Source of the DNA: Clostridia bacterium
GTDB taxonomy: Bacteria > Bacillota > Clostridia > UBA1212
NCBI GenBank assembly: GCA_017461545.1
Contig: JAFTXP010000022.1
Coordinates: forward strand, 497-64,496
Direction: 5' to 3'
DNA length: 64,000 bases
Numbering within the stretch: the stretch's first letter is position 1; the number at the start of each line of letters is the position of its first letter. The notes beneath the pieces were generated by a model. It was not told the DNA's origin. It ran no database searches and was given only the letters and a program-made list of their open reading frames with translations. Made by a program: the position numbers and the translations under genes. Below are positions 1-14,809 of this stretch, piece by piece.

Positions 1-2
1 GT

Positions 3-482
3 TATTTAGCATGGCCTGGTGAAATACATAGATATGTACAGAATATTTTATCGCTATACATTTGGTTATTTTTAGGCTGCTTTACATATTCTGATTATTT
101 TATACGGTTCAATAGGTATAAATACGGATTCGCCGATTTATATGCAAAACGATGGAAAGAAATTTGGGAAGTAAAACCAAATAAAAAATCATATAAAACC
201 TCGGGCCCGAAACAACTAAAGAAATATTTAGATGGAATTAGTGGTTCAAAAAAAGGACGAAATTTAGGAACTTTTAAAACATATTATCATAATTATTCCG
301 GATTTTATGAGGTTAAGATTTATAGTAATAGCAATGATGGCATGATTTATTATGATTACAACTACAGTTGGAAGGTTAATACTACAATTCTGTTAGCGGT
401 AACCTCTATTGCTTTGATAGCAACAGGAGCTGGTTCATCTGTGGGAGTACCGATGTTGTCGAGGTTATTATTACCTATGTAA
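3..482 (+). CDS. 3-prime end of an ORF entering from upstream of the window (about 159 codons); hypothetical protein with hydrophobic C-terminal tail
   Basis: This frame is open from position 3 to TAA at 480-482. It is absent from the ORF track because its start lies outside the window. It ends ...TTILLAVTSIALIATGAGSSVGVPMLSRLLLPM, and the next ORF follows immediately. Confidence 0.4.
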   Translation, partial: YLAWPGEIHRYVQNILSLYIWLFLGCFTYSDYFIRFNRYKYGFADLYAKRWKEIWEVKPNKKSYKTSGPKQLKKYLDGISGSKKGRNLGTFKTYYHNYSGFYEVKIYSNSNDGMIYYDYNYSWKVNTTILLAVTSIALIATGAGSSVGVPMLSRLLLPM

Positions 483-498
483 ATTCATGGAGGAATGT

Positions 499-1209
499 AT
501 GAAAAAAATGAAAACAGAATGTCTTCCGTCGGAAATTCATACTAAAGAACCGTCAAAGTCTTTTTTAAATGAGTTATCGTTGCAGGTGACTCCAAAAATC
601 CAACGTCTGATAGAAGATAAGGATATAAGTGATAATTTATTTAAAACAATACGTTTTGACTTAAGACCGGAATTTTACCTTGAACCAATTTTTAAATATC
701 ATAAGAACTATATGAAAGCTTATATTTCCGCATATTCAACCTCTTTGATACTATGTGAAATCATTATTTGTTGGAGAAGTAGCAATGGAACTCAAATATA
801 TCCTTGGGAGAATTTAGCGGGAGAAATTTCGTTTGATGTATGCATATCTGATTACAATCTTAAATGCTTAAATAAAGTCATTCCGATGATATATCATCCT
901 GTTATAAAGTCTGAAGACAGCGGTCTTCATTTTGATTATCAGATATTTTACGGTGGTCAGTATTTGAATTTATATTTCAAAGAAAATATCACTCCGACTG
1001 ACTTATCGGAAGTAGGAAAAATAATCAAGGAATTTTTTACGGAGTGGAATTGTTCTCATGACATAAAGTTGCATCATATCGAAATCGTAAAGTATACGAA
1101 AAATACGCTCAAAATTGAAATAGATTTGGGCGGTTGCGGAAAAGATATGATTGAAAATATTATTAAGAGAATGAATATTCCTAAAATAAAAAGAATAGTA
1201 TTTAAATAA
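499..1209 (+). CDS. hypothetical protein, candidate immunity/partner of the upstream ORF
   Basis: ORF 487..1209. GGAGG at 489-493 sits 5 nt before ATG 499 (MKKMKTECL...). No motif recognised. It is tightly coupled to the preceding ORF. Confidence 0.5.
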   Translation: MKKMKTECLPSEIHTKEPSKSFLNELSLQVTPKIQRLIEDKDISDNLFKTIRFDLRPEFYLEPIFKYHKNYMKAYISAYSTSLILCEIIICWRSSNGTQIYPWENLAGEISFDVCISDYNLKCLNKVIPMIYHPVIKSEDSGLHFDYQIFYGGQYLNLYFKENITPTDLSEVGKIIKEFFTEWNCSHDIKLHHIEIVKYTKNTLKIEIDLGGCGKDMIENIIKRMNIPKIKRIVFK

Positions 1210-1404
1210 TGAAAACATTCTTAATAATTAGGCATAATAAGAATGTTATTTATCTAAATTCTAATAAGAACGCATTAAACAATGGGATTTTTGCTTCGTT
1301 GAGTGATGCGTTCTTATTTATCGAATACTTTGTAAAATAACATTTATACAATTGTCAAATTACTTTCTAAAAGTTATAATCTAACCGAAAACTGAATACA
1401 TAAA

Positions 1405-1896
1405 TTGCCACCCCGATGCCACGCCGGCATCGTAACCACAACAACCGACGACCTTGGTAGAGTGATAGGCTCCATATTGCAAACCACAGGTGACTTCGCG
1501 CTTATGGAAAGCTACAGCTATGACAGTATCGGAAACATTACAAGAGTGACCGAAAACGGCGTACTCATGCTCAGCTATCAGTATGACGGACAGGGTCAGC
1601 TTGTGCGAGAGGACAATGCATACGCGAGTGCAATATATGAATTTACATATATTTATTTGTTTAGTTGTAAAGGTGGAGCAGGTAGTGAAGGAAACAATGT
1701 TGCATGGATGTTTGCAAAACTAAGTAGCGTTGGAGTGCAAGCATATACTGGAAGCGTTTCTTATTCGAAAGTATTTGGTAAATACTTTGCAAGAAAGGCA
1801 TTGGACAACGGGAAGATCAAACTATTTTATTATCAAAAACGATATATATTTTGGGGCAAATTGGTTGCCAAGAGTTCATCAACAAGTCAATGGTAG
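1405..1896 (+). pseudogene. orphan Rhs/WapA-type YD-repeat fragment fused to an unrelated C-terminal (toxin-like) tail; no credible start
   Basis: The translation contains DDLGRVIGS, YSYDSIGNITRV and YQYDGQGQLVRED (YD-repeat signature). Homology stops at about 1625 and switches to novel sequence. There is no RBS or ATG at the 5-prime end. Confidence 0.6.
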
Positions 1897-1901
1897 AGAG
1901 G

Positions 1902-2324
1902 ATGTTTTTTACAGTGAAAAAATTTACCTTGTTTATTAATATATTGGTCATAGTAATGATTGTTGTTTGTATAATAGGAGCTTGCTCGATAACTAATAAG
2001 ATAAATATGGATTTTGTAAAGGATGCTAAGGTTATTTTTATATATAATGATGCCAATGTATCTCATAATTTATCTGACGAAGAATTGTTGATAATAAAAG
2101 ATATTTTTAATGGTAAAAAAATGTATAAAGACAATCTTTCATGTGGTTTCAGTGAAGATATATCTATTAAATTTAATAACTCACAAACTTTCTGTGTTGC
2201 TCGTGATTCTTGTCCCATAGTATATTGGAAGGAAGAAGATCGATTCATTAAGATTACTGAGGATGAAAAGTTTAAATTATATTCGGTGTTAGAAATGCAT
2301 GGATTTACATTTCCTTGTGTATGA
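1902..2324 (+). CDS. membrane-anchored hypothetical protein (candidate immunity for the 1405-1896 cassette)
   Basis: AGAGAGG lies before ATG 1902. The N-terminal signal anchor is MFFTVKKFTLFINILVIVMIVVCIIGACS. It starts 6 nt after the cassette stop. Confidence 0.5.
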   Translation: MFFTVKKFTLFINILVIVMIVVCIIGACSITNKINMDFVKDAKVIFIYNDANVSHNLSDEELLIIKDIFNGKKMYKDNLSCGFSEDISIKFNNSQTFCVARDSCPIVYWKEEDRFIKITEDEKFKLYSVLEMHGFTFPCV

Positions 2325-2331
2325 AGGAGAT

Positions 2332-2369
2332 AGAAATCAAGCAGGAAAATTATGTCCTGCTTGATTTCT
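2332..2369 (+). terminator. 15-bp perfect hairpin after the cassette
   Basis: agaaatcaagcagga (2332-2346) pairs with tcctgcttgatttct (2355-2369) around an 8-nt loop. There is no strong T-run. Confidence 0.45.
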
Positions 2370-2448
2370 GGACGGTGTAAAATAAATATTGTTTTTTGAA
2401 AGATAAATAGAAATGGAGACTAACACCCAGTATAATAAATGTGCCTAA

Positions 2449-2673
2449 AACAATTCACTTGTACTTTCCGAAATCAACCGAGAGGGAAGCTCCGAAACAG
2501 GCAGAATTCTTTCGGAAAATTTGAACACCTATGACGCAGACGGAAACCTCATAAAGGTTGAAACATATAAAAAATATGTTTATAAAATTAAAACTAGATG
2601 GGTTAAGATAGGATATTGGTATAAATATCAAGTGATAAGAATTTGGAATGTAAGCAGGAGGGTGTCTACGTGA
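2449..2673 (+). pseudogene. second orphan YD-repeat fragment with short novel C-terminal tail; no start codon
   Basis: The frame is open from 2449 to TGA 2671-2673. It reads ...LSEINREGSSETGRILSENLNTYDADGNLIKVETY, then KKYVYKIKTRWVKIGYWYKYQVIRIWNVSRRVST. Confidence 0.55.
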
Positions 2674-2840
2674 TAATTAGCTATAGTTGGATAATTATGT
2701 CGGTATTATTCTTTTTTGGTATAATAGCAAATGTTACAAGGCTATTTTTTGTAGAAAAAGATTTCTCATGGAGTAGCATTTTTGTTGTTGCGCTTTTTAT
2801 AGTACTGTTTGTTGTATCATTGATATTGGCTTTAAAATAG
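2670..2840 (+). CDS. 56-aa two-TM protein (candidate immunity)
   Basis: GGAGGG at 2657-2662 precedes GTG 2670, which overlaps the cassette stop (GTGA). The protein is hydrophobic: IISYSWIIMSVLFFFGIIANV...FVVALFIVLFVVSLILALK. Confidence 0.45.
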   Translation: MIISYSWIIMSVLFFFGIIANVTRLFFVEKDFSWSSIFVVALFIVLFVVSLILALK

Positions 2841-2988
2841 TATTTGGTACGGCTATCGTTTGATGATACAATCTTTCCAGGTTATCTGTCTTGTCACGGT
2901 AAATGGTAATTTTTCAAAATATGGATGGGCTAAGTTTTTTACTTCTATCGGAATTATGACCGGAATTGAAAAGTTCTATATCTACTGA
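2836..2988 (+). pseudogene. toxin-tail stub, copy A (...VNGNFSKYGWAKFFTSIGIMTGIEKFYIY*)
   Basis: A short open frame without a convincing start. It is homologous to stub 4944-5138 and sits directly upstream of a paralogous lipoprotein gene. Confidence 0.45.
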
Positions 2989-3470
2989 ATGTTATAGGAG
3001 GATTTCATGAAAAAAATACGTGTAGTTTGTCTACTTTTTATTACTGTGATATTGTGCAGTTGTTCATCGAATCAACACTTTGTATATGAGGAAATGTACA
3101 ATTATATGTGGGTACCGGATAGAGCTTCAGATTATTATTACAAAATTGAAAATTTTACAGATGGTGTTTATGTTTGGGGATTTGATTTGAAAGAGGATGA
3201 AGTTTCGGAATTAGAAGCATCTGAAAAATTCAACGTGTTATCGAAAGAAGATGTAAAAAATATTGAATTTAATGTTTTTCACGAAGGAATACCGGAGTGG
3301 TGGGGTTTAAGCCCAAACAGTGTGTTTTACATGTATGCACCATACAAAAATGAAGAAAGCACAGATACTTCGCTTTTGGGTAGTACATATTACATATACA
3401 TTTGGGATATAGATGCTAATGAATATTTTTGCATATATAAGTATTAAGAATATTCTTTTCATTGTCTAGA
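2898..3470 (+). repeat. duplicated module copy A (toxin tail + lipoprotein gene + about 20 nt past the stop)
   Basis: Similarity to 5036-5607 starts at ggtaaatggtaatttttcaaaatatggatgggct and ends at ttaagaatattctttt after the stop. Confidence 0.8.
3007..3447 (+). CDS. lipoprotein, paralog A (candidate immunity)
   Basis: AGGAGG RBS and lipobox LCSCS. About 62% identical (hand count 82/132, mature region) to the 5141..5584 product. Shared block EGIPEWWGLS..VFYMYAPY...YYIYIWD. Confidence 0.7.
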   Translation: MKKIRVVCLLFITVILCSCSSNQHFVYEEMYNYMWVPDRASDYYYKIENFTDGVYVWGFDLKEDEVSELEASEKFNVLSKEDVKNIEFNVFHEGIPEWWGLSPNSVFYMYAPYKNEESTDTSLLGSTYYIYIWDIDANEYFCIYKY

Positions 3471-3519
3471 ATAAATGGTGTAGTTTCGATTACATTGTTT
3501 ATGTCCAATAATGTAAAAG

Positions 3520-3729
3520 TTGAATACAGAAATTATCGCTCCAAATCCAAGCAGGTATCGTAACAACCGCAACAACCGCGAACTCGGCAGAGTAATCAGA
3601 AGTTTTGTGAGACACTGTGAAACCGAGCGAAAGCGAAGGCTGAACGGCAATGACGAACATATGCAGGGAGCGAATGAATCGAACAAAAGATTGATTATTT
3701 ATGCTTTAATATGGAGTGTGCAAATATGA
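3520..3729 (+). pseudogene. degenerate, frameshifted YD-repeat remnant
   Basis: ggtatcgtaacaaccgcaacaacc (GIVTTATT) matches 1432-1455 (GIVTTTT). The following ELGRVIRS lies in another frame, so the tracked 69-aa ORF is a remnant frame. Confidence 0.4.
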
Positions 3730-4214
3730 GAAGGATATATATTGTTTTTGTCATGGTTATTGTTTTTACAACAAGCGGTTGTACAATGAACACTTACAGG
3801 ACTTCAGAAATATCTGAATACGGAAGCTATAAAAGTACTATTATATATGACTATTTAGAATCGTTTCCTGATAAAGAAGTTGTGAATAAATCCATAAACT
3901 GCAATTATGAATATCGATACAGAGGAACGTTATTCTATGATGACCAGTGTATTTATATATGGTGTGAGTATTCGGAAGAAGATTATATATCAGAAATTGA
4001 ACGATTAAATATATCGCATGGTGAATATGATACAGTGTTGTTTGATTTGCCCGCATATGTATTTATATATGACGATATTTGTTATGAGTATGCAATAATC
4101 GACGATGAAAACAGGACGATTCACTACATTTATATACAATATTTGACTGATTTGTGTGAGGATGCCGGTATTCCTTATTTGCCACAAAAGAGTGCTGATA
4201 TATATGTGTACTGA
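3726..4214 (+). CDS. lipoprotein, hypothetical (candidate immunity)
   Basis: MRRIYIVFVMVIVFTTSGC lipobox. It follows the YD remnant. Confidence 0.55.
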   Translation: MRRIYIVFVMVIVFTTSGCTMNTYRTSEISEYGSYKSTIIYDYLESFPDKEVVNKSINCNYEYRYRGTLFYDDQCIYIWCEYSEEDYISEIERLNISHGEYDTVLFDLPAYVFIYDDICYEYAIIDDENRTIHYIYIQYLTDLCEDAGIPYLPQKSADIYVY

Positions 4215-4294
4215 AGCCGGGAAATATGAGAAAGGATTCAGTATCTATTATAAAACGATAGTATCGGTAAATTTAGTGTTTAAGGAATAAGACA

Positions 4295-4322
4295 GTCGGA
4301 GAGAAATTCAATTCTCTCCGAC
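4295..4322 (+). terminator. rho-independent terminator
   Basis: gtcggagagaa / ttctctccgac form an 11-bp stem with a 6-nt loop. A T-rich tract follows shortly after. Confidence 0.55.
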
Positions 4323-4437
4323 CGGTTCCTTTTACAATGATTGAAAAAAAGCTTTTCCGTAGGTATAATGTAAATAACAAATTGAACGTGAAGAGTATGT
4401 TTAATCAAACTTATATGAAAACTGCGAGGTCAAAATT

Positions 4438-4983
4438 ATGGATGAAAGAGTAGTTTCAAGAAAGTGCAATTATGTTATAAAACGTATACTTATTGTTGCC
4501 GGGGTGATTACTTGCCTGATAATTATAACTGTAGGCATTCACAATATATTCTTTTTGACTCCGAATGAGTTGCGTGATATGAGCGGTGAATACGTTTGTA
4601 GGATGGACGAATGTGTTATCAATGTGAATTTTTCTGAAGAAAAATATGGAGGAGATAGTGCATATCCATTAATCAATGGAACAGTCACTTTTTCGGACGG
4701 CAAAAGCTATGAAGCTTATGTTTCCGTTATGAACGGCGGTTGTGTTTACTATTATGATGAGCCTATAATTGCTGCACCTGATAGGCTTAATATAACAGAT
4801 GAAACCGAGTTTGAAAAGCAACTTGCAGAATATGATTTGTGGGTGAGCAAGCACTGCATTACACTTGCAGAAGATCGTGGCGGAAAATCTATATACGGCA
4901 CTGTAAGTAGGGCAAAAGGTGATGGCTTTTACATTGATGATGAGTTATCTGGCAGAAAGTATATTTTCACCGCGAAAAAGTAA
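4438..4983 (+). CDS. membrane-anchored hypothetical protein
   Basis: 181-aa ORF with one N-terminal TM (ILIVAGVITCLIIITVGI). No recognisable motif. Confidence 0.5.
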   Translation: MDERVVSRKCNYVIKRILIVAGVITCLIIITVGIHNIFFLTPNELRDMSGEYVCRMDECVINVNFSEEKYGGDSAYPLINGTVTFSDGKSYEAYVSVMNGGCVYYYDEPIIAAPDRLNITDETEFEKQLAEYDLWVSKHCITLAEDRGGKSIYGTVSRAKGDGFYIDDELSGRKYIFTAKK

Positions 4984-5138
4984 TTAGAGATACTATCAAA
5001 AATGGAAATGCATCTTTTTTGAGCTTACCTGCTTGGGTAAATGGTAATTTTTCAAAATATGGATGGGCTCATTTTTTTACTTCAGTAGGTGTGTTAAATG
5101 GCTGTTTTTGTATTGATGTGCCTTATCGAAGGAGTTAG
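4944..5138 (+). pseudogene. toxin-tail stub, copy B (...WVNGNFSKYGWAHFFTSVGVLNGCFCIDVPYRRS*)
   Basis: The frame is open from 4944 to TAG 5136-5138 and has no start codon. It is homologous to 2836-2988. Confidence 0.45.
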
Positions 5139-5607
5139 GTATGAAAAGATTTCTTAAAGTAGTAATTATTATTCTTGTTCCGATTCTGCTATGTAGTTGT
5201 TCGCTGAGTGAACGATATGCACATGAAGATATCCGTAAATACATGTGGATTCCGGAACGGACGTGTGATGATTTTTACAAAATCAATAGTTTTACAGATG
5301 GCGTTTGTGTTTGGAGATTTGAACTGAAAAAGAAAGATATTGAAGAATTGGAAAAGTCAGATAAATTTAGGGATTTATCTGACGAGGATATTCAGAATAT
5401 TGAATATAATGTTTTTTATGAAGGAATACCGGAGTGGTGGGGATTAAGTGAAAACAGAGTATTTTATATGTATGCACCGTACATAGATAAAGAATGTACG
5501 GATACTTCTTTTTTGGGTAGCAGATATTACATATATATTTGGGATATGGATGCTAATACATACTTTTGTGTAGATTGGTATTAAGAATATTCTTTTATTG
5601 GCTACAA
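5036..5607 (+). repeat. duplicated module copy B
   Basis: See copy A. The offset between copies is about 2134-2138 nt. Confidence 0.8.
5141..5584 (+). CDS. lipoprotein, paralog B (candidate immunity)
   Basis: AAGGAG RBS and lipobox LCSCS. Paralog of 3007..3447. Confidence 0.7.
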   Translation: MKRFLKVVIIILVPILLCSCSLSERYAHEDIRKYMWIPERTCDDFYKINSFTDGVCVWRFELKKKDIEELEKSDKFRDLSDEDIQNIEYNVFYEGIPEWWGLSENRVFYMYAPYIDKECTDTSFLGSRYYIYIWDMDANTYFCVDWY

Positions 5608-5738
5608 TAAATGAGGTTACAGCAGTAAAGGTCCGGTCGGTTATTGACAAGATTAATATGCGAGTAAAAACACAGGATGTTATTGACTTAGTTATGAACC
5701 GATACAAAGCAGTAAAATAGAGTATGTGAAACAACACA

Positions 5739-5769
5739 GCGCCCCGTGGATTTGTTATCCGCGGGGCGT
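5739..5769 (-). terminator. GC-rich hairpin downstream of acpS
   Basis: gcgccccgtgga / tccgcggggcgt form a 12-bp stem (two G-U pairs) with a 7-nt loop. Confidence 0.55.
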
Positions 5770-5786
5770 TATAATATCATAAATTC

Positions 5787-6170
5787 TCAATTTTTGCTCA
5801 ATATCACAACCGTTGCAACAGCAGTATCCTTTATGTGTGAGAGACTCAGATCGATCGATTCGATTTCCAGTTTCTCGGCTGCGGCAAGTGCCTTGCCGTG
5901 AAGCAGCAGATATGGCTTTCCGATTTCGTCCTTTGCGACTTCAATCATGTTAAGCATGATGCCCTCGGAGAAGCCTTTGCCGATAGCTTTTACAAAAGCC
6001 TCTTTTGCGGCAAAACGTGCCGCAAATCTTTCGAAACTGTTTACTGCTGAAACGCAGTATGCGGCTTCTGATTTCGTATAGACTTTTTCGATAAAATGAG
6101 TACCGGAATTTGCAATGCTGTTTTTTATTCTTGCAACCTCCACTATGTCAATGCCTGTATGAATAACCAT
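5787..6170 (-). CDS. acpS: holo-[acyl-carrier-protein] synthase
   Basis: GIDIVEVARI N-terminus and FAAKEAFVKA motif. ATG at 6170 is preferred over the tracked TTG at 6185. Confidence 0.85.
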   Translation of the reverse strand: MVIHTGIDIVEVARIKNSIANSGTHFIEKVYTKSEAAYCVSAVNSFERFAARFAAKEAFVKAIGKGFSEGIMLNMIEVAKDEIGKPYLLLHGKALAAAEKLEIESIDLSLSHIKDTAVATVVILSKN

Positions 6171-6245
6171 ATAAAACCCCGTCAAATGTATTCTTTGTAA
6201 AAAGTTTAGATTATTTATACGGGGTTGTCAAGACCCGCCGTATTG

Positions 6246-6965
6246 CTATTGTGCTGCGTCAAGTGTCTGTTTGTCATATCCGGCAGCTTGCTCTAAGCGA
6301 AGAATATCAGCTGCGCGGAGTGCGGCTCTGTCTTTCTTTGCGGCATAATCGAGTCTGTTGTAACGAAGACCGCTGTTTTCGGAGTTGAGCTGTTCTGTTG
6401 CAATGATTCGGGCGCACCGTGTATTCAATGAGCTTTTAAGCTTGTCGATTCGCTCTTTGATAGCGCCGCCCGATGCGGTTTCGTAAGAGTTTCCTATCTT
6501 CTGAATTTGCTCGCGGAGAACAACAAGCTTTGTCTGTGAACGCATTGTCTGAAGTTCGTAGAGCTTCATATTCATTTCATTCTCAAATTGCTTGAAATCG
6601 TCTCTGATTCTGATTGCCTCATTGACTGCGGCGTCATACAGCTGTTTTCGTTCATCGTAAAGATTTTCAAATTCTTCTTCACGCATAAGGAGTTCGACAA
6701 GAAGCTCTTTGTTGTTTTCTTTTACTGCAATCTGAATTTTCCGACGTGTGTCAGCAAGTTTTTTTTCGGCTTCCCTCATGTCGATTTTGACGGTTTCAGC
6801 CCATGTCTGAACTTCAACAAGCTGTTTCTGAGCTTCTTTTTTGCATTTCTTTATGCGGCTTTCCGTGTCTGCAATTAAGTATTCCGGATTTCTGTCCTCG
6901 GCTTTTGTTGTGAAGGATTCAAAAAAACCGTTTAAAACCGATTTTAACCTTTTAAATATTCCCAA
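6246..6965 (-). CDS. pspA: PspA/IM30 family protein
   Basis: GIFKRLK...KAEDRNPEYL N-terminus followed by long coiled-coil-like sequence. GGTGGTG lies before TTG 6965. Confidence 0.75.
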   Translation of the reverse strand: MGIFKRLKSVLNGFFESFTTKAEDRNPEYLIADTESRIKKCKKEAQKQLVEVQTWAETVKIDMREAEKKLADTRRKIQIAVKENNKELLVELLMREEEFENLYDERKQLYDAAVNEAIRIRDDFKQFENEMNMKLYELQTMRSQTKLVVLREQIQKIGNSYETASGGAIKERIDKLKSSLNTRCARIIATEQLNSENSGLRYNRLDYAAKKDRAALRAADILRLEQAAGYDKQTLDAAQ

Positions 6966-7065
6966 GATTAACACCACCGTGGTAAGACTATGTTTTATAG
7001 TATTCTGTTACTCAGCCTGGTATGCCATCTCTGCAAGTCCGTTTTTTAGTGAAGTTTCATAACTG

Positions 7066-7320
7066 TCAGTTGGTTATATTGATTTCCTTTGCCCTGCGTA
7101 TAAGTGAATTGTATTTAACCTCAAACGCCTTAATCATATAGGCATAGTAAGAAATCATATCTTTGTCAGACGCGTCGTTAAAGTGCAGATTGGCAAGCTC
7201 AATCTGTTCCTTGGTTTCTCTGATTTCTCTGCGAAGATAATCTTCCTCACATTCAACCGGTTTTGTAAATTTCTTTTCGATACCGGTTTTTACCGTCGTT
7301 ATAATTTCTTTAACTTTCAT
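7066..7320 (-). CDS. DUF2508 (YaaL) family protein
   Basis: MKVKEI...LHFNDASDKDMISYYAYMIKAFEVKYNSLIRRAK. The internal ATG at 7320 is preferred. Confidence 0.7.
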   Translation of the reverse strand: MKVKEIITTVKTGIEKKFTKPVECEEDYLRREIRETKEQIELANLHFNDASDKDMISYYAYMIKAFEVKYNSLIRRAKEINITN

Positions 7321-7409
7321 ATAATCACTCCCGTGAAATATTTCTATATAAAGTATTACCTTTACACTGAAAAAGTTATTCATAAAACAGATAACTTATT
7401 ACTAATTGT

Positions 7410-7438
7410 TTGACTTAAAAGCTCTTGTGTGATAGTAT
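7410..7438 (+). promoter_or_regulatory. sigma-A type promoter for the SCIFF gene
   Basis: TTGACT (7410-7415), 17-nt spacer, TAGTAT (7433-7438). Confidence 0.45.
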
Positions 7439-7476
7439 GTTCACATAATTTTGAATTATCTTGGAGGTTGATGGAT

Positions 7477-7626
7477 ATGAAACACATCAAAACTTTAGAA
7501 ACACGTGATTTGTGCAAGAGTGCAAAAAACGGCGGTTGCGGCGAGTGCCAGACTTCCTGCCAGTCAGCTTGCAAGACCAGCTGCGGCGTTGCTAACCAGG
7601 CATGCGAAAATGCTAAGGCGAAGTAA
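7477..7626 (+). CDS. scfA: SCIFF (six cysteines in forty-five residues) ranthipeptide precursor
   Basis: MKHIKTLETRDLCKSAKNGGCGECQTSCQSACKTSCGVANQACENAKAK. GGAGG lies 9 nt upstream of ATG 7477. It is adjacent to its maturase. Confidence 0.9.
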   Translation: MKHIKTLETRDLCKSAKNGGCGECQTSCQSACKTSCGVANQACENAKAK

Positions 7627-7647
7627 TTAATCACTATATTGTTATGA

Positions 7648-7772: not shown

Positions 7773-9155
7773 ATGATACACAGATATAAAATGGGAAATC
7801 TCAATATAGTTCTTGACATATATTCGGGTTCGGTACATGCAGTTGACGAGGTAGCATATGAGATGATAGGCATGTACGAGACTTGCGAAAAACACGAAAT
7901 TATTGATGCGATGCTCGGAAAATTTTCAGGAAGCGAGGGTGTTACACGCGAAGAGCTTACGGAGTGTTACGAACAGATAGGCGAGCTCAAGGCAGCCGGA
8001 AAGCTTTTCAAAGAAGATTCGTACAAGCCGCTTGCAGGTGCGCTCAAAGAGAGGAGTGCAAATGTCGTAAAGGCGCTTTGCTTACATATTGCCCACACAT
8101 GTAACCTTAATTGCTCATATTGTTTTGCAAGTCAGGGAAAATACTCGGGCGAAAGAGGCCTCATGAGTTTTGAGGTGGGAAAGCGTGCTCTTGATTTTCT
8201 CGTAGAAAACTCAGCCGGCAGAAGAAATCTTGAGGTTGACTTCTTCGGTGGCGAACCGCTTATGAATTTTGATGTTGTAAAGCAGCTTGTTGCATACGCA
8301 CGTTCAATAGAAAAGGACGCCGGCAAAAACTTCCGTTTCACGCTTACAACAAACGGTGTTTTGATTGATGACGATGTCATTGATTTTGCAAACCGTGAGA
8401 TGAGCAATGTCGTGCTGAGCCTTGACGGCAGAAAAGAAATTCACGACCGTTTCCGTGTGGACTACGCAGGTAACGGAAGTTGGGAGAGAATAGTACCTAA
8501 GTTTCAGAAACTCGTAGAGGCTCGCGGCGGCAAAAATTACTATATGCGCGGCACTTTTACACATGCAAACCCCGATTTTCTTAAAGATATAGAAAAAATG
8601 TTGGAGCTTGGTTTTAAAGAACTCAGCATGGAGCCTGTCGTATGTCCGCCGGACGATCCGTCAGCGCTTACGGCAGAAGATCTTCCTGTAGTTATGGAAC
8701 AGTATGAAAAGCTTGCTGAACTTATGCTGAAGAAGCACCGCGAGGGTGATCCGTTCACTTTCTATCACTACATGATTGACCTGACAGGCGGCCCGTGTAT
8801 ATATAAACGTCTTTCCGGTTGCGGTTCGGGCACCGAGTATATGGCGGTTACTCCTTGGGGCGATTTGTACCCATGCCACCAATTCGTCGGCGATGAAAAG
8901 TTCCGCCTCGGTGACATATGGACAGGTGTGACAAACAAAGAGATTCAAAACGAATTTGCTTCGTGCAATGTTTACGCGCGATCCGAATGTGACGACTGCT
9001 GGGCAAAGCTTTACTGCTCAGGCGGTTGTGCGGCAAACTCTTATCACGCCACCGGCTCCGTAAAAGGCATTTATTCGCAGGGTTGCGAGCTGTTCAGAAA
9101 GAGAATGGAATGTGCCGTTTATCTTGAGGTCGCAAAGGCTCTCGGCGAAGATTGA
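7773..9155 (+). CDS. scfB: SCIFF peptide radical SAM maturase (thioether cross-link forming, SPASM domain)
   Basis: CNLNCSYC radical SAM motif and a Cys-rich C-terminal SPASM region (CGSG...CHQF...CDDCWAKLYCSGGC). N-terminus MIHRYKMGNLNIVLD is typical of the family. Confidence 0.9.
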   Translation: MIHRYKMGNLNIVLDIYSGSVHAVDEVAYEMIGMYETCEKHEIIDAMLGKFSGSEGVTREELTECYEQIGELKAAGKLFKEDSYKPLAGALKERSANVVKALCLHIAHTCNLNCSYCFASQGKYSGERGLMSFEVGKRALDFLVENSAGRRNLEVDFFGGEPLMNFDVVKQLVAYARSIEKDAGKNFRFTLTTNGVLIDDDVIDFANREMSNVVLSLDGRKEIHDRFRVDYAGNGSWERIVPKFQKLVEARGGKNYYMRGTFTHANPDFLKDIEKMLELGFKELSMEPVVCPPDDPSALTAEDLPVVMEQYEKLAELMLKKHREGDPFTFYHYMIDLTGGPCIYKRLSGCGSGTEYMAVTPWGDLYPCHQFVGDEKFRLGDIWTGVTNKEIQNEFASCNVYARSECDDCWAKLYCSGGCAANSYHATGSVKGIYSQGCELFRKRMECAVYLEVAKALGED

Positions 9156-10564: not shown

Positions 10565-10996
10565 TTAATCTTTATCAGATTCTTCTGCGAGCTTGTTTAT
10601 AAATGCGTCGGGCGTATAAATCGGAATATTTGATTTTTCAAAATCACAGACATTTCTGGTAATTATGCAGTCAATTTCAGAACGTAAGGCTGCTTCTTCT
10701 ATCAAAGCGTCTTCGTAATCTTTGATGGGAGAGGGGAGCGCACGAAGGCAATCTATTCCCATAGTGTCTGCGACATCAAAAAGCGTAAATAATTTGCTGA
10801 GAACGAGTCTTGATTCTTTGTCACTGTGTGTAAAACGGTGCATTATGTAATATATGTCCGATACGGAGTTTGCAGTTATGTATCCTATATAACGGTTATT
10901 TGCTGCCATCAAAAAAATATTTTGTGCGTCTTTCGCAAATGGTTCGCGGTTTTGCATAGCATCAATAATGATGCAAGTATCTATCAATGCTCTCAT
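10565..10996 (-). CDS. PIN-domain toxin (VapC-like)
   Basis: MRALIDTCIIID N-terminus. It has a 4-nt overlap with the upstream antitoxin ORF. Confidence 0.75.
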   Translation of the reverse strand: MRALIDTCIIIDAMQNREPFAKDAQNIFLMAANNRYIGYITANSVSDIYYIMHRFTHSDKESRLVLSKLFTLFDVADTMGIDCLRALPSPIKDYEDALIEEAALRSEIDCIITRNVCDFEKSNIPIYTPDAFINKLAEESDKD

Positions 10997-11208
10997 TTTT
11001 TATCTTTTCTTTCCTTACGTACATCATCTGTTGGAAAGTCGTCCGGTATGATTCCGAAAAGCGACTTTGCAATATCGACCTTTTCCTGAAAAGGATTTGT
11101 CAGTTTAGATATTACTTTCCCGTTTTTTGTTATATATATATCCTCTGTTGCGGAGAGCAGAAGATATTTGCCGAGATTTTTTTTGAGTTCGGTTGCTGTA
11201 ATTGACAT
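10993..11208 (-). CDS. Phd/YefM-type antitoxin
   Basis: MSITATELKKNLGKYL...ITKNGKVISKL. 71 aa, with an ATGA overlap onto the PIN gene. Confidence 0.7.
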   Translation of the reverse strand: MSITATELKKNLGKYLLLSATEDIYITKNGKVISKLTNPFQEKVDIAKSLFGIIPDDFPTDDVRKERKDKK

Positions 11209-11233
11209 GGAAATTTACCTCCTTTTTGTTTAT

Positions 11234-14737: not shown

Positions 14738-14809
14738 TGACTCCTAGGGGAATCGAACCCCTGTTTTCGCCGTGAGAGGGCGACGTCTTAGCCTCTTGAC
14801 CAAGGAGCC
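14738..14809 (-). tRNA. tRNA-Glu (anticodon CUC), CCA not encoded
   Basis: The reverse complement folds as a cloverleaf: acceptor GGCTCCT/AGGAGTC, anticodon stem TCGCC/GGCGA, loop CTCTCAC, T-loop TTCGATT. Length 72 nt. Confidence 0.85.

Follow-up and report, generated by a model that had tools for sequence, protein, structure and literature searches.

The first 5,600 nucleotides (nt) of a 64,000-nt stretch of DNA from an uncultured Clostridia bacterium (contig JAFTXP010000022.1 of assembly GCA_017461545.1, positions 497 to 64,496; hereafter the window) are very probably what remains, in degenerate form, at the distal end of a WapA-like polymorphic-toxin (rhs) locus of ~20 kb. The feature is of a known kind, the orphan-cassette array of a Rhs/WapA-like locus, and represents no new system. 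Orphan modules form when incoming or rearranged rhs 3′ ends push older toxin/immunity pairs downstream. In the locus described here, successive cassettes of a toxin tail and an immunity gene lie downstream of the main gene, each starting with main-gene sequence. A preliminary description, made from the letters of the window alone, had proposed a decaying Rhs/WapA-type array of orphan cassettes, and this proposal was supported by the gene found upstream, by the orphans that follow it and by the homology of the fragments in the window.

Using an exact-protein look-up of the 236-amino-acid (aa) product of window 499–1209, we located a 105.5-kb metagenome scaffold in ENA and a second, independent ENA assembly. 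Both equalled the window at 11,209 of 11,209 compared positions, with 0 mismatches, and the scaffold extends upstream. There we found the full-length YD-repeat gene that had been predicted to lie outside the window: a complete main rhs gene of 2091 aa (1355–7630 in locus sequence L069, where window position = L069 position minus 15678), ending 8048 nt before window position 1. Its product is composed, in order, of an N-terminal signal peptide, a DNRLRE domain (aa 303–468), a YD-repeat shell (65.7 and 51.8 bits with PF05593 / TIGR01643), a Rhs-associated core (TIGR03696, aa 1824–1917, 66.4 bits) and a variable C-terminal toxin domain of 174 aa with hydrophobic helices. The predicted Sec signal peptide reads MKKTGKNFKRFLSLLLVVCTVCSVLPKNLRAQ, with a hydrophobic segment at residues 7–29 read from the translation. 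A 139-aa gene, putatively for immunity, overlaps the end of the main gene. Pfam and NCBIfam find only the DNRLRE domain, YD repeats and Rhs core in the main protein, and no cell-wall-binding or sortase signal. Because these databases show no wall-binding or anchoring region, we regard the main gene as WapA-like in its delivery logic and do not term it a WapA orthologue. The closest named relatives of the Rhs protein were from Ruminococcus bromii and Ruminococcaceae, and when orphan 4, described below, was searched against GTDB genomes, one for each species, it returned only distant Rhs core matches in unrelated phyla. Directly upstream of the main gene, at L069 1–1155, is a gene for a 473-aa cell-wall hydrolase with SH3_6 and NlpC/P60 domains; as a purely positional hint, this enzyme could help the 2091-aa protein through the wall.

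Four orphan cassettes follow the main gene in the same orientation, with a small gene 3′ of each orphan, and PxxxxDPxG-type boundary motifs could be read directly in the main gene and in orphans 1–4. Core homology in orphan 1 spans only 109 nt. Orphan 2 matches the main gene from nt 3554 of the compared part onwards and is interrupted by two insertions. Orphans 3 (478 aa) and 4 (480 aa) each have 920–950 nt in common with the main gene at ~96% identity, and these two could swap the main toxin through homologous recombination. The whole toxin domain follows the core end in orphans 1, 3 and 4, and of all the cassettes these three alone look switch-competent. The two orphan-2 insertions are related to each other, measure ~110 nt each (4483–4592 and 4662–4775 in locus sequence L001, equal to L069 10659–10768 and 10838–10951), share one orientation, lie 69 nt apart and split the coding sequence. 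Both fold as the same two hairpins (minimum free energy z = −5.05 and −3.29); the first stem is conserved, and the second differs in sequence yet pairs. They gave no Rfam match, and no further copy was seen in the window, the fetched loci or viral contigs. They may be a small structured element or one resembling a miniature inverted-repeat transposable element.

Orphan 4 enters the window as cassette A. Its open reading frame (ORF) starts 961 nt upstream, and the start of the window is the exact core/toxin boundary, between ...CENEPVKHIDKLGY and LAWPGE.... NCBI names its product 'RHS repeat-associated core domain-containing protein, partial'. The complete C-terminal toxin domain (159 aa) occupies 1..482 on the plus strand, as established from the ORF translation and from identity with L001 and L069. 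It scored E 0.036 against Tox-REase-9, below cut-off, and a D...ExK motif (ADL...EIWEVK) is visible by eye, so the cassette-4 toxin may be a PD-(D/E)xK nuclease; it had no PDB match. Directly 3′ of it lies the candidate immunity gene (499..1209, plus strand, 236 aa) with a GGAGG ribosome-binding site, whose product had no Pfam or NCBIfam match and no hydrophobic segment. The suspicion that the frame at 3–482 and its partner at 499–1209 belong to the same locus was borne out, the two being the toxin tail and immunity-type gene of the fourth orphan cassette. An inverted repeat at 1263..1318 (plus strand) forms a hairpin with 20-nt arms that are 85% complementary, followed by a T-rich run, and is likely the terminator of cassette 4. 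A 43-aa ORF (1209–1340) that spans this hairpin is probably no gene.

Beyond cassette A, three fragments were homologous to the main gene in both nucleotide and protein maps. A six-frame translation of window 1–5800 contained all the YD peptides quoted in the preliminary description, at or a few bases from where they had been placed: ...HAGIVTTTTDDLGRVIGSILQTTGDFALMESYSYDSIGNITRVTENGVLMLSYQYDGQGQLVREDNAYA... appears in frame 1 from 1405 and NNSLVLSEINREGSSETGRILSENLNTYDADGNLIKVETY in the same frame from 2449, and at ~3548–3612 AGIVTTATTA stands in one frame and ELGRVIRS in another. The YD models recognised the first fragment, remnant B, above cut-off (RHS_repeat 23.3 bits, cut-off 22; TIGR01643 20.7 bits, cut-off 15.8), while the second and third, remnants C and E, were too short for a match of their own; alignment to the main gene succeeded for all three. 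Remnant B consists of two parts on the plus strand, 1420–1520 (main aa 1541–1574, 89% nt identity) and 1511–1650 (main aa 1604–1652, 90% nt identity over 1511–1625), with nucleotide E values of 2e-33 and 6e-41, and bears a 33-codon in-frame internal deletion between SYSY repeats. The YD piece of remnant C (2450–2568, plus strand) corresponds to main aa 1242–1279, with 96% nt identity over 119 nt and 37 of 38 aa identical. That of remnant E (3548–3600, text to 3612, plus strand) starts from main aa ~1541 and is 83% identical over 54 nt with one insertion or deletion, which explains the frame shift noticed earlier; it is the oldest YD piece.

As the preliminary description had reported, each YD fragment switches abruptly into unrelated sequence. 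All three come from the middle of the YD shell, and the later shell repeats and the Rhs-associated core (aa 1824–1917) are absent from each of them. The homology that had been thought to be kept for toxin switching is therefore real, but it is mid-shell and not the toxin-adjacent 3′ stretch. Remnants B and E have their 5′ breakpoint at the same place in the main gene, aa ~1541, and a common leader of ~70 nt precedes it in both (window 1340–1420 and 3470–3550); this leader is not rhs sequence and includes a TATAAT-like element. The common breakpoint and leader imply a common origin of the 5′ ends, which would be either a common ancestral cassette 5′ end or one junction used again.

In cassette B the YD piece is fused in frame to a toxin tail (1651..1896, plus strand) that keeps the last 81 residues of a ~175-aa domain. 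When 1396–1893 was used as the query, 14 proteins besides its own product were found, all matching the second half only. An intact homologous domain of ~175 aa stands directly after the Rhs core end (...GFNLFAYCGNNPIMYVDPTGY) in proteins P0002, P0005, P0007 and P0104. The B tail was 67–76% identical to the C-termini of P0002–P0010 (intact after ...NPIMYVDPTGY) and 66% identical to the C-terminus of P0104, a 611-aa RHS-repeat protein. It begins with (V/I)YLFSCKGGAG, and the N-terminal half with the invariant LYLHGG is gone. Since the tail aligns to the last 81 residues only, a deletion has fused the shell (...AIYEFTY) straight to the middle of the toxin domain. Such a fusion partner of the remnant, with loss of half the toxin, was demonstrated for B only. 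LYLHGG and SC.GG were conserved in every aligned member of the family that spans them. The family has no curated entry and no PDB sequence match; below the Pfam cut-offs it resembled DUF4347 (E 0.004) and Peptidase_C13 (E 0.09). A structural model (mean predicted local distance difference test score, pLDDT, 63.9) gave metacaspase, CHAT and caspases as top folds, at only E ≥ 0.03 and template-modelling (TM) scores ≤ 0.35. These are weak hints that the family may be a caspase/CHAT-like (clan CD) cysteine peptidase.

The partner of the B tail is an immunity-type gene at 1890..2324 (plus strand), encoding 144 aa with a hydrophobic N-terminus and a lipobox-like IGAC. The small ORF had been placed at 1902; it is present, but gene callers begin it at the ATG at 1890, where it overlaps the TAG stop of the toxin frame (ATGGTAG). 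The same arrangement was found in another genome, at locus L061: there, the stop of the intact toxin gene P0007 overlaps the start of a 142-aa gene 56% identical to gene B; the ratio of nonsynonymous to synonymous substitution rates (dN/dS) between the two was 0.26. When 1.84 billion representative proteins were searched exhaustively, the family of the B immunity-type protein accounted for most of 482 significant matches. It has invariant Cys, Gly, Phe and Asp positions and comprises hundreds of 50%-identity clusters, with no Pfam model. The intact homologues and the L061 pairing confirm the B tail as the remains of a real toxin, with the small ORF as its conserved partner.

The remaining cassettes repeat this layout with less left of the toxin. 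Remnant C continues into a 34-aa tail (2569..2673, plus strand) that is unrelated to the YD shell and, judging from the junction, presumably represents the C-terminal end of a toxin domain that has been lost. Through a GTGA, the stop of the tail overlaps the start of a small membrane protein of 56 aa with two hydrophobic segments and an AGGAGG ribosome-binding site (2670..2840, plus strand), which found only itself among the matches listed. In remnant E the tail (3613..3729, plus strand) overlaps the next start through ATGA, and lipoprotein E (3726..4214, plus strand) has 162 aa and a TSGC lipobox. The small ORFs that had been noticed at 2670, with its GTGA overlap, and at 3726 thus both exist, the overlap at 3726–4214 being ATGA. 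At least 12 representative clusters of lipoproteins homologous to lipoprotein E were found, most with an SGC lipobox, and there is no Pfam model for them. Within the E tail, a 46-nt segment (3632–3677) is 93% identical to L001 2087–2132, just upstream of orphan 1, and is in frame in both copies (LNGNDE(H/R)MQGANE). No homologue of it was found. We considered it as a structured RNA or as a copy of the ~110-nt orphan-2 insertions and rejected both ideas, there being no fold signal and no alignment.

Cassettes D and G are paralogous. Tail D (VNGNFSKYGWAKFFTSIG..., 2898..2988, plus strand), a presumed toxin 3′ end, and tail G (VNGNFSKYGWAHFFTSVG..., 5036..5138, plus strand) contain a 48-nt block of 96% identity (from 2898 on and at 5036–5083). 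In the preliminary description start-less tails at 2836–2988 and 4944–5138 preceded paralogous lipoproteins; the paralogy holds, but demonstrable homology begins only at 2898 and 5036. At the start of the D/G unit, 33 nt are perfectly identical (2899–2931 versus 5037–5069) and the remainder is 73% identical; the perfect stretch could reflect conservation of the toxin C-terminus, a recent event of gene conversion or a site with a function. Lipoprotein D (3007..3447, plus strand, 146 aa), 18 nt after its tail, has an LCSC lipobox and an AGGAGG ribosome-binding site. Lipoprotein G (5141..5584, plus strand, 147 aa), 2 nt after its tail, likewise has an LCSC lipobox and is the last gene of the array. 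The two are 59% identical with a dN/dS of 0.24. Joint Genome Institute (JGI) metagenomes contained no relative of the D/G lipoproteins, and scans of JGI data with the D/G tails gave two matches, both spurious, inside a cobalamin-binding protein gene.

Gene F (4438..4983, plus strand) encodes a membrane-anchored protein of 181 aa with one N-terminal hydrophobic segment. A homologue (61%) was found in a second decayed rhs array (L072–L074), where it has a YD fragment on its 5′ side and a truncated B-type immunity gene on its 3′ side; this co-occurrence ties the F and B immunity-type families to rhs arrays. The part of the second array in L073 also holds a toxin tail with a membrane protein, a YD fragment with 76% aa identity to main aa 1616–1775, a 146-aa cytoplasmic protein and, besides the F homologue and the truncated B-type gene, further small membrane ORFs. 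These sequences indicate that the same small-gene families are shuffled between arrays of the same samples.

Across this end of the array a Shine–Dalgarno sequence precedes every small gene. An N-terminal hydrophobic segment is present in five of the seven products, four of them with a lipobox-like motif; protein C has two segments and the product of cassette A has none. Window 1210–5600 thus holds six intact small genes, and every toxin part in it is truncated. The array then gives way to conserved genome with acpS (5787–6185, minus strand). Of the promoter-like sites, the best three are located in the gaps that precede B, F and C: TTGTCA-17-TATAAT (11/12) at 1352..1380 upstream of remnant B, in the ~70-nt leader common with E; TTGAAA-17-TATAAT (11/12) at 4341..4369 upstream of gene F; and a 10/12 site at 2408–2436 before remnant C (all on the plus strand). 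Hairpins follow cassettes A, B and E. That after gene B (2330..2373, plus strand) is terminator-like by its sequence, its Rfam match being spurious and sub-threshold, and a strong hairpin of 13 pairs (7 G-C) at 4293..4324 is terminator-like on both strands. Transcription is predicted to come probably from cassette-internal promoters and read-through. These sites and hairpins, and a G+C of the array island (0.33) below that of the rest of the window (0.41), add to the support for the reading as a decayed rhs array. An Rfam search of window 1–6000 and of the upstream array found no families.

From cassettes B–G, internal deletions have stripped the remaining shell and the core, along with half of the toxin domain in B. 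A short mid-shell fragment and a short tail are left in B, C and E, a tail alone in D and G, and neither in F; the toxin residues kept number 81 of ~175 in B, 30–42 in C, D, E and G, and none in F. Cassettes B–G would accordingly make no functional toxin, and they would be beyond rescue, because recombination at the fragments would delete the remaining shell and core. The small genes would have been kept as stand-alone immunity against matching toxins of neighbouring strains. Because the partner genes encode extracytoplasmic products, the array further suggests that the lost toxins acted on the cell envelope.

Several points weigh against reading window 1–5600 as the decayed end of a toxin locus. 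An immunity role is putative for every small gene, and gene F is preceded by no remnant of a toxin. The toxin-remnant status of the C, D/G and E tails comes from position and preserved junctions only, and among the matches listed there was no full-length toxin homologue for any of them. Among those matches, too, D/G and protein C had no homologues outside the lineage, and the 90% clusters of D/G and protein C had one member each. All other recovered copies of the locus were 99.8–100% identical, and cassette gain or loss between strains is not scorable from them. Promoter-like sites were not above chance (27 found, 31 expected). Some of these facts would also suit an array in which the whole of 1210–5600, small ORFs included, is non-functional debris whose ORFs are open merely through shortness. 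Single-member 90% clusters for most of the small proteins, the missing outside homologues of D/G and C, promoter-like sites at chance level and a low G+C (0.33 in the array island, 0.41 in the rest of the window) are consistent with such neutral wreckage, and the truncated B-type gene in L073 shows that immunity genes do decay. Against it, dN/dS was ~0.25 in both comparable pairs, indicating purifying selection; all seven small genes are open, whereas every toxin partner past cassette A is destroyed; the small genes have retained their ribosome-binding sites and the coupling of stop and start at their junctions; and the B immunity-type and E families are widely conserved. We therefore consider neutral debris unlikely.

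It is far less probable still that the fragments are live recombination substrates through which the tails are put into service as new toxins via the main gene. The mechanism is proven for intact orphans (PMC3967940), and B and C retain 100–120 nt at 89–96% identity to the main gene. Recombination at these points, however, would lose the shell past aa 1279 or 1652 together with the core at 1824–1917. In addition, the B toxin is without its N-terminal half including the invariant HGG motif, E is frameshifted, the C and E tails have only 34–42 aa, and demonstrable D/G homology covers only ~30–34 aa. The possibility that rhs repeat pieces were wrongly joined during metagenome assembly or binning deserves hardly any weight. 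The NCBI metagenome-assembled genome contig (proteins MBQ8165222-229) does break within a repeated rhs cassette, inside orphan 4, and Logan contigs end at repeats (1598, 2902 and 5040). Order and sequence are nonetheless the same, with 0 mismatches over 11.2 kb, in two independent ENA assemblies, and most junctions are bridged by overlapping Logan contigs, which are short, come from several sequencing runs and are 99.8–100% identical to the window. The window sequence is therefore no assembly artefact. With the decayed rhs array as the preferred reading, we put forward one extension of it as a tentative idea, which we hold to be rather doubtful: the intact lipoprotein and membrane genes would together be a functioning island of immunity to Rhs toxins that act on the envelope and are exchanged between gut Clostridia. 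This would make them the Gram-positive equivalent of the Bacteroidales clusters discussed below, and the B pair would represent an undescribed toxin/immunity family, in which a caspase-like cysteine-peptidase toxin is neutralised by a cysteine-rich extracytoplasmic lipoprotein. The preliminary description had suggested new toxin/immunity pairs. The tails and small proteins indeed have no Pfam or NCBIfam match, but only stumps of the toxins are left, and two of the small-gene families already occur widely in metagenomes.

The array resembles several described systems. Orphan rhs-CT/rhsI modules of Enterobacteriaceae, such as Salmonella Typhimurium STM0292 (Koskiniemi et al. [quoted passage not shown] Switching in Salmonella was possible with 522 bp at 95% identity, and orphans 3 and 4 here offer 920–950 nt at ~96% (PMC3967940). 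Unlike those orphans, the present ones are in a Gram-positive-type Clostridia host with a Rhs protein that has a predicted signal peptide, and the sequence examined showed no type VI secretion genes. The array here is also much longer, with four orphans and six degraded cassettes, and the fragments in the window are mid-shell with truncated toxins. WapA of Bacillus subtilis and Streptococcus suis (PMC12704120) likewise has a signal peptide, a YD shell, a polymorphic C-terminal toxin and an adjoining immunity gene. The S. suis wapA loci carry 'truncated duplications', downstream truncated copies with other toxin/immunity pairs, and, as is proposed for the lost toxins here, some of their toxins act outside the cytoplasm (PMC12704120). 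In contrast to WapA, the protein described here has a DNRLRE domain and no detected wall-binding or sortase signal; its toxin/immunity sequences are unrelated to published ones as far as tested, and decay is greater.

Poole and colleagues reportedly described, in 2011, orphan cdiA-CT/cdiI arrays in contact-dependent inhibition loci. These are likewise displaced toxin-tail/immunity modules with short upstream homology, and they differ in that delivery is by a two-partner-secretion filament and not by a YD shell. Orphan immunity arrays, namely the acquired interbacterial defence clusters of Bacteroidales (PMC10470768) and the tandem esaG/tsaI genes of firmicutes (PMC9484751), are similarly strings of immunity-type genes without a working cognate toxin and are thought to protect against neighbours. 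By comparison, the genes in the window were left behind, in situ, by cassettes of the cell's own rhs locus, belong to different families apart from the D/G duplicate, and have neither recombinase nor mobile-element genes alongside. The locus and its flanks contained no gene for an integrase or transposase, and the nearest tRNA lies at 14738. As it has no recombinase, the array is not a mobile immunity island of the Bacteroidales type.

Further along the window, a SCIFF-type cysteine-rich peptide (...GGCGECQTSCQSACKTSCGVANQACENAK) is encoded at 7429–7626 and adjoins a radical-SAM maturase gene (7773–9155) that NCBI names 'thioether cross-link-forming SCIFF peptide maturase'. On the minus strand, a gene with a PIN_3 domain (Pfam; 10565–11208) and its 71-aa upstream partner are likely a VapBC-type toxin–antitoxin pair.

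The locus provides a well-resolved example of a rhs orphan array from an uncultured gut Clostridia lineage, and shows the full life history of such an array at one site, from a working gene through switch-competent orphans and a frameshifted orphan to stumps. It also flags for curation two widespread small extracytoplasmic families, those of the B immunity-type protein and lipoprotein E, and one toxin domain, all uncurated at present. The decay was asymmetric, with toxins lost and immunity-type genes kept, and this fits the view that immunity outlives offence.

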